Part shown: positions 44,001 through 52,800 of the stretch, piece by piece
Layout: each line of letters begins with the position of its first letter
Position numbering within the stretch: position 1 is the stretch's first letter
DNA from: Thermoanaerobaculia bacterium
Lineage (GTDB): Bacteria > Acidobacteriota > Thermoanaerobaculia > Multivoradales > UBA5704
Direction: 5' to 3'
Assembly (NCBI GenBank): GCA_035278895.1
Contig: DATEIO010000055.1
Location: 375-64,374 of the forward strand
Length of the DNA: 64,000 nt
Program-made: the position numbers and the translations under genes
Notes under the pieces: generated by a model
What the model was told of the DNA's origin: nothing
Databases searched by the model: none
Seen by the model: the letters and a program-made list of their open reading frames with translations, nothing else

Positions 44001-47000
44001 CCCGCTGTCGGTCAGGAGAAAGGCGATCCGTTCCGCGGGGGAGGCCGGGTCGACGGGCACGTAGGCTCCTCCCGCCTTGAGCACGGCCAGCAGCGCGACC
44101 ACCAGATCGGTCGAACGCTCCAGCAGGACCGTGACCCGCGTCTCGAGACCGACTCCCAGGGAGCGCAGGTGCCGCGCCAGGCGGTTGGCGGCCGCATCCA
44201 GCTCGCCGTAGGTCATGCGCCGTCCTTCCCAGACGAGGGCGGTCGCTCCGGGAGAGTGGGCGGCCTGGCGCTCGAATCCGCGGTGGAGCGGCACGGCCGG
44301 CAGGGGCTCGCGCTCTGCGGCGGGCTCCCCCAGGACCTGGGCGAGCTCGCCCGCGGTCAGCAGGAGGGCGTCGGACCGCGACGCGGGGCGGGACGCCGCG
44401 GCGGCCAGGGCGCGGAGCAGGTAGTCGCCGAACCGCTGGACCTCCCCGGCGTCGAGCTCCGAGGTGCGGTAGCCGAGATGGATCCACAGATGATGCGCCA
44501 GGGGATCGAGCAGCACGTGGACGACCAGGGGGAAGTTGGTCTCCTCGTAATCCTGCTCCCCCAGGACCTCGATCTCCTGCACGCCCAGGGTGCCCTGATA
44601 GACGTGGTAGTGCAGGTAGTTGAAGGCGATCTCCAGGTCCAGCCGGCCGCCTTCCCGGCGCTGCATCTCGGCGAACGGGAAACGCCGGAAGGGGAGCATC
44701 CGCCGCTCGAGGTCGAACACCTCCCGGGCCAGGCCGGTCCAGGAGGCGCCGCGCAGCCGCAGACGCAAGGGCAGGGTGTTGAGGAAGAGCCCGAGCGCAC
44801 GCTCGCCGTCCGCGTGCTCGGGCCGGCCGTGCGAGACCAGGGCGGTCAGCACGTCGGGAGTCCCGCCGAGAACGCTCGACACCTGCAGCTGGATCGCGAG
44901 CAGCAGGCTCTTGAGCGGCACCCCGGCTTCCTGAGCGGCCCTGTGAGCCGCCTCGGACAAGGCCGGATCGACACGGAACCGGAGGTTGCGGGTCTCGGCG
45001 CTCCCCGGCGCGGCGGCGGGCGGCACGATCCGCGGCAGGCGGGCCGGCTCGGCTCCGTCGAGCAGCCGGCCCCAGAAGTCGCGAGCCTCCGCGGAAGAGA
45101 GGGCCGCGCGCTCGAGGGCGATGAAGTCCCGGTAGGCCACGGCGAGAGGGGGCTCGGGAGGAGCCTCTTCCCCCCGCACGAGCCGGGCGTAGCGCCGGAA
45201 GAGATCGGTGAGCAGGGAGGCGGAGCTCCAGCCGTCCAGGATGGCGTGGTGGAAGCTCAGGGTGAACTGGAAGTCCGTCTCGCCGCGCGGATGGACGTGG
45301 AACGCGACGAGAGGAGGCCGCGTCCAGTCGAACGCCCGCCGCCGCTCCTGGCGCAGCCACTCCGCAAGGGCCGCCTCCGGCTCCTCCCGGGGCAGGCCGT
45401 GGACCTCGACGGGAACGGTCACGCCGGGATGGACGAGCTGCAGGGGCTCGCTGAAGCTCGCGAGGTCGAACGAGGTGCGGAGCACGGGGTGCAGGCGCGA
45501 GATCTGGCGCACGGCCTCGTGGATGCGGTCGAGACGGAAAGGCGCCCGGACGTGGACGCTGTGGAGGTCGTGATAGATGGCGGTGCCTTCCCCGGCCTGG
45601 CTGTGGAACAGCATGCCGGCCTGGAGCCTCGCCAGCGGATAGGCGTCCTCGAGCCCCTGGGGCAGCCGGGCGCGGTCGGCTTCGGCGAGGAGCGCGAACG
45701 GCTCGGTCCGCTCCCGGCCGGGCGCCGTGGCGTTCGTCTCTTCGGCCACCCGGGCGAGGTCCCGCAGGACGGGGTGGTCGAAGATCTGCTCGATCGTGAA
45801 GACCACGCCCCGTTCTTCGGCGCGGGCCCGGGCCACGATGCCGCGGATCGAATCGCCTCCCAGGTGGAAGAAGTTGTCGTGGGCTCCCACCCTTTCGAGG
45901 CCGAGAACCCCGGCCCAGACCTCGGAGAGGAGCCTCTCCGTGGCGGTCTCCGGCGCGACGAACTCCCCCGAAGCTCCCAGATGCCGCCAGTCGGGCTCCG
46001 GCAGGGCGCGGCGGTCCAGCTTGCCGTTGGCGTTCAAGGGCAGAGCGTCCAGGAACAGGAAGGCCGAGGGGACCATGGGCTCGGGCAGGCGCTCCTGCAG
46101 GCGCCCGCGCAGCCCGGCGGGGTCCGGCGGCCCGCCTGCGGCCACGATGTAGGCCACCAGGCGCCGCGACCCGGAGCCGTCCTCCAACGCCGCCACGGCG
46201 GCGCGCCGCACCTCCGGATCGCCTTCGAGGGCCGCCTCGACCTCCCCGAGCTCGATCCGGAACCCGCGGATCTTGACCTGGTGGTCCGCCCGGCCGATGA
46301 ACTCGAAGGTCCCCTCCGGCAGGCGGCGGGCCAGGTCGCCCGTCCGGTACATGCGGGCTCCCGGCTCCCCGGCCAGGGGGGCGGGCACGAAGCGCTCGGC
46401 GGTCAGGCCGGGCCGGTTCAGGTAGCCCCGTGCCACGCCGGCGCCGCCCAGGTAGAGCTCGCCGGGGAACCAGGGCGGCAGAGGCGAGAGGTCCGCTCCC
46501 AGAAGCCAGGCCGCGGTGCCCGGCAGGGGCCGGCCCAGCGGCAGGGTGGCGGTGCGCAGCCCCGGTCCGGCCGGATGGGTCAGAACGCCCACCGTGGTCT
46601 CCGTGGGGCCGTAGTGATTGATCACGCAGAGGCCCGGCCGGAGCGCGCGGAGGCCCTCCACCCATTCGCGGCGCGAAGCTTCGCCACCCAGGACCAGGCA
46701 GCGGCGCGGCAAAAGCTGCGGGCTCGGCGCACCCGCGAGCAGCGCCTCCAGGTGGCTGGGCGTGATCTTCAGGCAGTCCACGGGAGCGCGCTCGAAGGCC
46801 GCGGCGAGCGCCACGGGATCGGAGGCCAGCTCCTCGGGGATGAGATGAAGGGTGCCGCCGCCGCAGAGCGAGGGGAAGAGCACGGTGTTGCCCAGGTCGG
46901 CCGCGAAGGTCGAGACCATCGCGTAGGTGGCGCCGTCGGGAAGGTCCAACCGCTCCGCCACCCCCTGCACGTAGTTGGCGAGCTGCCGGTGCTCCACGGC

Positions 47001-49813: not shown

Positions 49814-52800
49814 GTGTCGCTCCTCTCCTTGGTTGTGGTCGTCACCCGCCGGGCGCCGCCGGGCCCGCAGCTTCTCCAGGCCGGCCGCCTTGACCGCCTG
49901 CTTGCGCGTCTCCTGCCGTTCGCGCTGGGCGGTTCCCAGCAGGCCCGCCAGGGCCGAAAGGCGGAGGTCCGGGTCCTCTGGGACGGCCTGCGCCAGGGCG
50001 AGGAAGTCCTCGGCCATCTGGCGGACGGCGGCGCGCGGGAAGAGATTCGTCCGGTACTCCAGCGTTGCGCTCAGCCCCTGGGAATCCGGCCAGAGGCTGA
50101 AGCTCAGGTCGTGCCGCGGCGCCGTGCGCCCCACCGGCACGGTTTCGGCCGCGAGGCCCGGCAGCGACAGCGCGGGCACCGGCGTGTTGTGGAGAACGAA
50201 CCAGGCGTCGAACAGCCGGGTCCGGCCTTCGCCGGGATCGTGCAGCGCGGCCGCCACCTGCTCGTACGGCATCTCCTGGTGGGCGTAGGCTCCCAGGGTC
50301 GTCTCCTTCACCCGGGCGAGAAGCTCGCGGAACGGGGGATCTCCCGCGAGGGACGTCCGCAGCACCACCGTGTTGACGAAGTTTCCGATCAGCCCTTCGA
50401 CCTGGGAGGTGAGCCGGCCGGCCACGGGCGAGCCCTCCGCGGTGTCTTCCCGGCCGGTCCGCTGCCAGCGCAGGAGCTTGAAGAGGGCCAGGAGCACCAT
50501 GAACAGGGTGCAGCCCTGGGCAAGCCCGAGAGCGCGCAGCGGCTCGGCCAGCGCGGCCGGCACCCGGAAGGTCTCGACGGCGCCTTCCGGCTCGCCGGCC
50601 TGGAGCGGGCGGCCCGGCGCGGTCCGCAGCGGCGTGAGCCCCGCGAGCCGTTCCCGCCACCAGTCGAGCTGCCCTTCGATCTCGCTGGCCCGCGCTCGCT
50701 GCCAGACCGCGAAATCGGCGTACTGGATGGGAAGGGGCGGCAGAGCCGCCGGCCGGCCCGCGGAGCGCGCCGCGTACAGGGCCGCCAGCTCGCCGAACAG
50801 CAGGCCCCAGGACCATCCGTCGAAGCCGATGTGGTGGAAGCTCAAGGAGAGCACGTGCTCCCCGGGCTTGAGGCGGAAGAGCGCGGCCCGGAACGCGGCA
50901 CCCCGGGCCAGGTCGAAGGGCCGGAGGGAGCTCTGCGCCAGGAGCGCCCGCACCTCGCTCCAGGCCCGGGCCTCCTCCAGGAGCTCGAGATCGACCACGG
51001 TCAGCGGCTCCCCGGCCTCGGCCGCGATCCGCTGGAACGGCCATCCCTGGGCCTGGGGGAAGGCCGTGCGGAGAGCTTCGTGGCGCGCCACGACCTGGCC
51101 GAGGCTCCAGGCGACCGCCGCCGGGTCGAGCGGGCCGCGGAGCCGGTAGGAGCTGGACAGGTTGTAGGCCGGGTTGGCCGGGTCGAGCTGCTGGAGAATC
51201 CAGATCTGCTGCTGGGCGAAGGAGAGCGGCAACGGGCCGCTCCTGGGGGCTCGTTCGATGGCCGGCTTCCCGGGGGCCGGGAGATCGTCGGAGGCGAGCC
51301 GCGCGGCGAGCCGGGCGACCGTCGCCCCGGCAAAGAGAGTCTCCAGCGGGAGCTCCCGGCCGAACGCTTCGCGCAGGCGCGAGGCGAGGCGGATGGCGAG
51401 CAGGGAGTGCCCCCCCAGCTCGAAGAAGTCGTCCTGGACGCCGATTCCGTCGATGCCCAGGAGGTCTTCCCAGAGCGCGGCGATCCGTTGCTCGATCTCG
51501 TTGCGCGGCGCCTCGAAAGGCGTCGAGAGGTCGGGCCTGTGGAGGCCGGCCAGGGGCTCCGTCCGTACGGCGGGAGCCTCGGGCTCCGGCTCCAGGGCAG
51601 CTCCGTCCTCCGGCTCCAGCAGCAGGATGCTGCGGATCCCGGGCTCGCCGGCGAGCCGGCGCTCCAGCTCTTCGCGGCTCTGCTCTCCTTCGACCACGAT
51701 CACGAAGCGGCGTTGGCCCGCCGCGGCCGGGAGCGCCGGAAGGGGATGGCGGGGCGGGTCCACCCAGAACCGTTGCCGCTGGAACGGATAGGCCGGCAAG
51801 GGGAGGCGCCGGCGCCGCTCCCCGGCGTGGAAGCCCTGCCAGTCGACCTCGGCCCCGGCGAGCCAGAGACGGCCGAGAGCTTCGAGCATCACCGCGGAGT
51901 CCGGCTCCGTGCCGTTGGGACGGCGCAGCGAGGACACCGGAGCGGGCCGGCTCTTCGGATCGGCCTGCAGCCGTGCCAGGTCTCCGAGAGCGCGGCCGGG
52001 GCCAACCTCCAGGAGCACGGCGCGGGTGCCCGCGAGGAGCGTGGCGAGCCCTTCTGAAAACCGCACCGTCGAGCGCAGGTGGCGGGCCCAGTAGCCGGGA
52101 TCGGTGGCCTGCTCCGCAGTGATCCAGGTCCCGGTGAGGTTCGAGATGAAGGGGAGGGCGGGGGGCTTCGGCGCGGCCTGGGCGACCCGCGCGGCAAACT
52201 CGGCGAGGACCGGGTCCATCATGGCGGAATGGAAGGCGTGCGACGTGTGGAGCCGCCGGGCCTGGATCCCCTGGCCGGCCAGCCGCTCCGCGAGGAGCGC
52301 GATGGCTTCCTCCGGGCCCGAGGCGACGCTCATCGACGGGGCGTTGACCGCGGCGAGCGAGAGCCCGGCAACGGCCTCCAGCTCGGGCCGCAGCTCGTCC
52401 TCGGACAGCTCGACCGAGAGCATCGCCCCGGGGGGCAGGTCCTGCATCAGCTCGCCCCGGGCGGCCACCAGCGCCAGCGCATCCTCCCGGGAGAAGACGC
52501 CGGCGAGGCAGGCGGCCACGTACTCTCCGAGGCTGTGGCCGATCATGGCCTCCGGCTGGATTCCCCAGGAGATCCAGAGGCGGGCCAGAGCCAGCTCGAT
52601 GGTGAACAGGGCCGGCTGGGCGAAGCGCGTCCGGCGCAGCTCGAAGGCCGCCTCCGCGCGCCGGTCCGCCGGCGGGAAGAGGAGCTCCAGGAGGTCGCGC
52701 CCCAGGAGAGGGAGCAGCTGCCCGGCGCAGGCGTCGACCTCGGCGCGGAAGACCGGCTCGCTCTCGTAGAGCTCCCGGGCCATGTCCGGGTGCTGCGCCC

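Follow-up and report, generated by a model that had tools for sequence, protein, structure and literature searches.

A condensation (C) domain that ends a megasynthase, with a hydroxylase fused behind it in place of an adenylation (A) domain and a peptidyl carrier protein (PCP), raises the question of which residue this C domain adds to the chain and on what substrate the hydroxylase acts. Such an arrangement is found in a stretch of 64,000 nucleotides (the window) from a Thermoanaerobaculia bacterium (Acidobacteriota; contig DATEIO010000055.1, positions 375 to 64,374). Motif mapping and Pfam scans revealed a hybrid polyketide synthase/non-ribosomal peptide synthetase (PKS/NRPS) line in the window, with a G+C content of about 73% and all real genes on the minus strand. 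One protein of this line, encoded by open reading frame (ORF) A, ends in a C domain and a TauD-type dioxygenase; the next, encoded by ORF B, opens with a C-family domain that has lost its catalytic histidines (the His-less domain, C*), followed by an Asp-coded A domain and a PCP. In all likelihood, these parts together make up a single elongation module divided between two proteins, which would install β-hydroxy-aspartate (β-OH-Asp).

The features of the junction are listed below; KS denotes ketosynthase, AT acyltransferase, ACP acyl carrier protein and E epimerisation domain.

48752 to >64000, minus strand: ORF A, 5′-partial, called as 48752–63949 and extending past the window end; domain order from the motif map and Pfam ...PCP-KS-AT-PCP-C-A-PCP-C-A-PCP-KS-AT-PCP-C-TauD
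51296–51490, minus strand: PCP/ACP (Pfam PP-binding, 63.8 bits), carrier of the preceding KS-AT-PCP module
49949–51232, minus strand: canonical C domain (PF00668, 286 bits), the last of ORF A
49853–49948, minus strand: basic tail after the C domain, AGLLGTAQRERQETRKQAVKAAGLEKLRARRR
49814–49852, minus strand: former intergenic spacer of thirteen codons, PAGDDHNQGEERH, aligned with L001, L002, L004, L166, L167 and L168
48755–49813, minus strand: TauD/TfdA Fe(II)/2-oxoglutarate dioxygenase (PF02668, 171 bits), 353 residues, fused in frame
41082–48755, minus strand: ORF B, C*-A-PCP-C-A-PCP-E
48753–48755, minus strand: most plausible start codon of ORF B, TTG, in a 4-nt overlap with the ORF A stop (TTGA), GAGG lying 7 nt upstream
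47526–48755, minus strand: His-less condensation-family domain (interface-type), N-terminus of ORF B
46020–47465, minus strand: A domain (AMP-binding, 250 bits, with AMP-binding_C), code DLTKVGHVGK
45750–45932, minus strand: PCP of the Asp module (Pfam PP-binding, 43.7 bits), with the motif LGGDSI

Domains on the two sides of the junction

The carrier at 51296–51490 acts as donor to the last C domain of ORF A. This domain has the motif HHIGFDG at 50816–50836 (minus strand) and scored 473 bits on a hidden Markov model (HMM) of related upstream C domains, against 233 bits on an HMM of the His-less domains; the His-less HMM was made from other loci, gathered in the survey described below. A basic tail of 45 residues separates the C and TauD domains, which are joined without an intervening stop codon (the integrated form). 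The TauD domain begins with the ATG at 49813 and closes with the sense codon at 48755, just before the stop codon TGA (48752–48754). Its TauD fold contains the complete 2-His-1-carboxylate triad and the 2-oxoglutarate-binding Arg, namely H128 (49430–49432), E130 (49424–49426), H322 (48848–48850) and R324 (48842–48844). These residues, which the earlier note on this DNA had picked out as the motifs ‘HNE’ and ‘AHGR’, are invariant across 84 aligned homologues. The fusion of an intact terminal C domain to a 353-residue Fe(II)/2-oxoglutarate dioxygenase, described in the same note, is borne out by the Pfam matches and the open frame; since the domain matches are strong and lie in one continuous frame, the junction is not due to chance.

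Homologues of the hydroxylase number in the thousands. The best 120 are all about 300–365 residues long, and the nearest, 80–83% identical, are free-standing proteins of 354–363 residues. A phmmer search against all PDB sequences (E ≤ 1e-3) returned only At3g21360, SqoD (9yut, a sulfoquinovose dioxygenase) and PlaO1; it found no close relatives of the hydroxylase and no similarity to AsnO or VioC. The grouping with free-amino-acid hydroxylases that the earlier note had considered was not seen in this search, and assignment of the enzyme to the AsnO/VioC type was rejected for want of similarity among solved structures. In NCBIfam, neither the hydroxylase nor the His-less domain was assigned to an informative family.

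The N-terminal domain of ORF B is a full-length member of the condensation family (PF00668, E = 6.2e-31, residues 9–410, model positions 7–447 of 456), in agreement with the earlier reading, and canonical C domains from the PDB match it over the full length, Txo1 with E = 1.2e-19. The stretch aligned with the HHxxxDG position reads LPALCADA (48372–48395, minus strand), so that the catalytic motif is gone. The domain lies directly N-terminal to the A(Asp) domain and directly beside the TauD stop codon. On the His-less HMM, whose input left out the window together with the three loci closest to it and contained L022 (a locus of the cyanochelin C cluster), it scored 411 bits, against 133 and 195 bits on two canonical-C HMMs. 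The His-less domains form a family of their own with their own conserved motifs, of which GFRLSPQQ, HEILRT, LPALCAD, QYxDxAEWQNELLE and WQEYF are common to the window domain. These motifs demonstrate that some function is under selection, and the domain might be catalytic in another way (dehydration, epimerisation or chain transfer) rather than a passive scaffold; LPALCAD contains an invariant Asp and a frequent Cys. Such an activity is highly improbable, however, as both histidines of HHxxxDG are gone in 73 of the 75 C-like domains of the GTDB set (window included), an intact C domain able to condense is always present just upstream, and the known products of the cassette keep β-OH-Asp and not a dehydro residue. 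A non-catalytic, interface-type domain is the preferred assignment.

The code of the A domain, DLTKVGHVGK, is a standard Stachelhaus code for Asp and predicts this substrate; code extraction gave the same result as the earlier note. The PCP that follows is presumed to carry the substrate of hydroxylation. The range marked in that note contained the junction but stopped at 46011, where the A domain ends, leaving this PCP just outside. Its description of a split module, with C domain and hydroxylase on one protein and His-less-A(Asp)-PCP on the next, agrees with the domain order. The hydroxylase stop and the start of ORF B (TTG at 48755) overlap by 4 nt, and the corresponding genes overlap likewise in each of the five close relatives whose genes were called (L001, L002, L166, L167 and L168); this conservation suggests that translation of the hydroxylase and ORF B is coupled.

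The cassette in related loci and characterised systems

The survey comprised 80 loci from species-representative genomes, at least 80 from metagenomes and six found by exact look-up; every figure for the metagenome set refers to the matches listed, where close relatives are few. The cassette, consisting of a C domain, TauD and a His-less C-like domain followed by A(Asp), is present in at least 160 related loci (an approximate count), with the three parts adjacent in nearly all of them. The loci span Acidobacteriota (Thermoanaerobaculia, Pyrinomonadaceae, Blastocatellia and Holophagales), many Cyanobacteria, Actinomycetota, Chloroflexota and Bacillota (a Bacillus). A canonical, HH-containing C domain lies just upstream of TauD in 72 of the 83 GTDB-set loci, and in these 83 the next gene mostly opens about 0–400 nt further on with a C-like domain. 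The His motif of the His-less domains is replaced by LPALCAD, FSALIAD, MPALVAD or LSALIAD. Leaving the window aside, an A-domain code was readable in 73 GTDB-set loci; it is DLTK[IVL]GH[VI]GK (Asp) in 66 of these, and most of the remaining codes are Asn-like, as in a few Nostocales loci. The metagenome set agrees with this picture.

Using the His-less domain as a query against plasmids, only cyanobacterial and Methylocystis matches were found at E ≤ 1e-25. On a Bradyrhizobium plasmid, a C domain (HHILLD) and TauD are fused, and a His-less domain with the motif TSALRADA comes next; the latter, which is outside the HMM set, fits the His-less HMM (144 bits) better than the two canonical ones (31 and 79 bits). 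The plasmid of Leptolyngbya sp. NIES-3755, reportedly the cyanochelin A producer, carries an NRPS, TauD and an A-domain protein in this order.

Several loci depart from the common layout. Four loci from Nostoc, Scytonema and Calothrix (L053, L057, L066 and L070) have the motif LPALYAD and Asn-like codes DATK[IV]GEVGK, which suggests that they encode putative β-hydroxy-Asn modules on the same cassette plan. In a metagenome-assembled genome of Microcoleaceae UBA11344 (L021, 6001–10299), the TauD frame apparently runs without a stop into the His-less-A part, giving the opposite fusion, TauD-I-A. Plasmid C of Trichormus variabilis ATCC 29413 (L084, 5181–8020) encodes a stand-alone C-TauD protein of 798 residues, with a discrete carrier protein before it and a methyltransferase after it, unlike the usual sandwich layout.

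The downstream neighbourhood also bears on the substrate of the dioxygenase. TauD is tethered to the protein bearing the upstream ACP, and ORF C holds a second Asp-like A domain (DSTKAGHVGK); the enzyme could accordingly be imagined to act on an ACP-bound polyketide, on the Asp-like module of ORF C or on free Asp. Any of these has very little chance of being correct: an Asp- or Asn-coded A domain lies directly downstream across phyla, whatever stands upstream, and similarity to free-amino-acid hydroxylases is not seen among solved structures. The on-line β-hydroxylation of PCP-bound Asp put forward in the earlier note is supported by the adjacency of the three parts, the prevalence of the Asp code and the product of the cyanochelin C cluster. 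The resemblance to interface domains that it had pointed out also finds support, in the recurrence of the cassette and in its presence in that cluster.

Fused IβH_Asp enzymes and the interface domain were reportedly defined by Reitz et al. in PNAS in 2019, who are said to have suggested that hydroxylase and carrier-bound residue are both held in position by the interface domain. The related enzyme SyrP was reported by Singh et al. in 2008 to act on Asp-S-PCP, which also speaks against the other substrates considered above. The window resembles the proteobacterial IβH_Asp systems in that the Bradyrhizobium example has a homologous His-less domain. Its hydroxylase, however, is only about 45% identical to the proteobacterial ones and belongs to another clade, where the nearest relatives are free-standing genes; also, unlike the siderophore IβH_Asp NRPSs, the window has no siderophore context and makes a hybrid peptide-polyketide of very large size.

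The closest published parallel in layout is potashchelin, where PtcB has the architecture FAAL-ACP-C-TauD and is followed by C-A(Asp)-PCP (PMC7100376); in both cases C-TauD ends one synthetase and C-like-A(Asp)-PCP opens the next. The fused hydroxylase domain of PtcB was assigned as L-threo (PMC7100376). A 2022 review describes TauD domains in the NRPSs of serobactin, cupriachelin and taiwachelin and reports that such domains are always found beside Asp-selective A domains (PMC8949500). In the variochelin protein VarG, which belongs to a hybrid PKS/NRPS assembly like that of the window, TauD is an embedded domain (PMC10999976). The profiles of antiSMASH 8 detect both the hydroxylases and the interface domains (PMC12230676), and the antiSMASH metallophore rule comprises IBH_Asp, TBH_Asp and CyanoBH_Asp1/2.

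According to a 2026 preprint, the contig JAHHHP010000001.1 (Myxacorys chilensis ATA2-1-KO14) carries the cyanochelin C cluster. Locus L022 on this contig consists of a C-only ORF of 518 residues, a TauD ORF and a 1085-residue ORF containing a His-less domain, an A domain with the code DLTKIGHIGK and a T domain; the free TauD is 51% identical to the window hydroxylase. Isolated cyanochelin C contains β-OH-Asp, and its free hydroxylase cassette is reported to yield the L-erythro form. Within the same cluster, CcsJK ends in a fused C-TauD and cooperates with the next protein, CcsL. Among the cyanochelin systems (CcsH1/2, CcsH2/2 and CcsI; CcsJK and CcsL; CyanoBH_Asp1/2), L022 shares the three-part cassette of the window, whereas the cyanochelins differ in being small siderophores with transporter cassettes and in having the motif LSAMNADS or FSALIAD, not LPALCAD. 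The absence of earlier descriptions of a C–hydroxylase fusion at a protein boundary, which the earlier note had surmised, is contradicted by PtcB (PMC7100376) and CcsJK/CcsL; VarG, the serobactin, cupriachelin and taiwachelin domains and the antiSMASH 8 profiles undercut the novelty further.

More distant likenesses concern single parts of the cassette. The SyrP clade is reported to lie inside the IBH_Asp clade; in the SyrP/SyrE pair of syringomycin the TauD-family enzyme SyrP is free-standing, whereas the window enzyme is fused and encoded between two synthetase genes. The stand-alone TβH_Asp type, represented by Burkholderia sp. SFA1, is also of the TauD family and about 47% identical, but the Burkholderia gene lies beside mbtH and iron ABC transporters and is not sandwiched between a C-ended and an interface-opened synthetase. 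The X domain of glycopeptide synthetases, also of the C family, no longer has condensation activity and brings in oxidases that act in trans on a substrate bound to a carrier (PMC8949500). X-domain structures (PDB 4TX2/4TX3) match the His-less domain weakly (E = 7.9e-10), canonical C domains giving the better match; the X domain recruits P450s, ends the last module and belongs to a different subfamily.

The proposed scheme would thus run as follows. The A domain of ORF B would load L-Asp onto its own PCP. The His-less domain, presumably non-catalytic in condensation, would serve as a docking platform (interface domain) placing the hydroxylase by Asp-S-PCP, which the hydroxylase would convert into β-OH-Asp-S-PCP. 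The intact C domain of ORF A would then join the chain from the KS-AT-PCP module to the β-OH-Asp residue. We infer the physical docking and the order of hydroxylation and condensation from this arrangement. Stereochemistry is not predictable for the window, since PtcB is assigned L-threo and cyanochelin C L-erythro and identity to these enzymes is only about 45–51%.

Some points weigh against this scheme. Function at the locus and in its close relatives is predicted from sequence, and docking by the interface domain has the status of a proposal in the literature. A PDB search found no solved structure named as an interface domain or interface complex; no paper could be traced for the PDB entry 8z0q (‘special condensation domain’). 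The closest characterised hydroxylase, that of the cyanochelin C cluster, is only about 51% identical. Siderophore transport genes were not seen within the window, whose product, a hybrid of peptide and polyketide, is very large; the analogy with siderophores therefore covers the cassette and not the product. With these points considered, β-hydroxylation of PCP-bound Asp with the participation of a non-catalytic interface domain is a well-supported prediction.

Loss of the stop codon and the fusion of the hydroxylase

The C domain and TauD are mostly encoded by separate genes. A stop codon lies between them in 122 of the 127 scored loci (69 of the GTDB and 53 of the metagenome set), and fused C-TauD was found in five (three GTDB, two metagenome): Bacillus fungorum, a Pyrinomonadaceae metagenome-assembled genome, Dictyobacter and two metagenome contigs. 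All seven closest relatives of the window, with hydroxylases 64–83% identical, keep the stop codon, and the possibility that the fusion is a conserved design of the lineage was rejected on this ground. In all seven, the region of the tail forms the C-terminus of the upstream synthetase, which ends in ...GLEKLRAKRREAV or a near variant before the stop, and the hydroxylase starts after a spacer of 2–27 nt or in a 4-nt overlap. In two of them the spacer, of 27 nt, is in frame, and nothing more than loss of the stop is needed to join the genes. Where the relatives have TGA, the window has GAC; having lost this stop codon, it encodes a hydroxylase tethered to the C domain. The Shine–Dalgarno sequence GGAGAGGAG (49820–49828, minus strand), 6 nt before the ATG at 49813, is retained together with this ATG, and some free hydroxylase may therefore be made alongside the fused form.

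The intact Shine–Dalgarno sequence and ATG, together with the stop in the seven relatives, could also mean that an assembly or sequencing error removed the stop and that the hydroxylase is really free-standing, the chemistry being unchanged. Exact look-ups with ORF B and the MFS gene gave no independent copy of the window sequence. However, the difference between GAC and TGA requires several substitutions or two compensating indels, more than the change of one base, which makes a simple sequencing error improbable; moreover, similar fusions occur in five other lineages and in published systems. An artefact is therefore an unlikely explanation. The fusion in the window is evolutionarily young and lineage-specific, and it is the only unusual feature of the cassette here. 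The nearest alignment neighbours of the three fused GTDB loci and of the window are separate or unscored, and these four fusions consequently look independent.

A basic motif, QKLKxxKRKxV, ends the tail of the upstream synthetase in L002, L005, L022, L166–L168 and others, and the tail of the window (49853–49948, minus strand) has LEKLRARRR. It is echoed at the N-terminus of the hydroxylase (KLGxVRRKAVSLS), where the window reads LKKLSLAQRREV (49750–49813, minus strand); the element shared by tail and N-terminus can be written KLxxxxRKxV. Of 69 tails, 65% have the motif within their last 25 residues; in 200 shuffles this share averaged 36% and reached 49% at most. The repeated motif could serve in docking or be a relic of the junction's past.

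A bolder reading, possible though rather doubtful, connects these observations. It takes the window to hold a very young fusion in a separate-gene clade, one of at least six independent fusions; from their number it would follow that an obligate ternary complex already unites the tail with the hydroxylase and the interface domain, which would make fusion and fission nearly neutral. KLxxxxRKxV would then be a possible docking code, and tethered and free enzyme might both be present.

The remaining assembly line and the place of the cassette

The other genes of the line, all on the minus strand, are as follows (KR, ketoreductase; MT, methyltransferase):

21280 to about 41100, minus strand: ORF C, C-A-PCP-C-A-PCP-E-C-A-PCP-C-A-PCP-KS-AT-KR/MT-ACP
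ORF D, minus strand: C-A-PCP-C-A-PCP
ORF E, minus strand: C-A-PCP-C-A-PCP
4487–8212, minus strand: ORF F, with an odd terminal architecture

ORF A contains two minimal KS-AT-carrier modules without reductive domains (51296–53900 and 60955–63343, minus strand), each directly feeding a C domain; one of them directly precedes the C-TauD pair. The first C domain of ORF C (about 40000–41100, minus strand), which follows the E domain of ORF B, has the motif HMLLLDG, where Met replaces the second histidine, usually the catalytic one. In L034, L071 and L077, the C domain that comes after the Asp module has similarly degenerate motifs (AQLLLDG, QHLLLDR). The second A domain of ORF C (about 34900–36500, minus strand) is the one with the Asp-like code DSTKAGHVGK; its module has normal C and E domains and is without an interface domain or a second hydroxylase. 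ORF F contains a C-family domain in which EAILIDG replaces HHxxxDG, an A domain reduced to its small C-terminal subdomain, and a PCP; its last 520 residues or so have no Pfam match and no thioesterase motif. Beyond ORF F lie genes for an MFS transporter, an NAD-dependent epimerase and a methyltransferase.

The cassette at the junction of ORF A and ORF B is an ordinary example of a described three-part unit and does not represent a new kind of system. With it, one β-hydroxy-aspartate can be confidently predicted for the product of this hybrid PKS/NRPS cluster, which is very large and uncharacterised. The survey extends the hydroxylase/interface cassette far past the proteobacterial and cyanobacterial siderophores where it was first described, and fused and free forms of the hydroxylase interconvert readily across it. 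These data are useful for annotation rules and for the choice of constructs in work on the function of interface domains.

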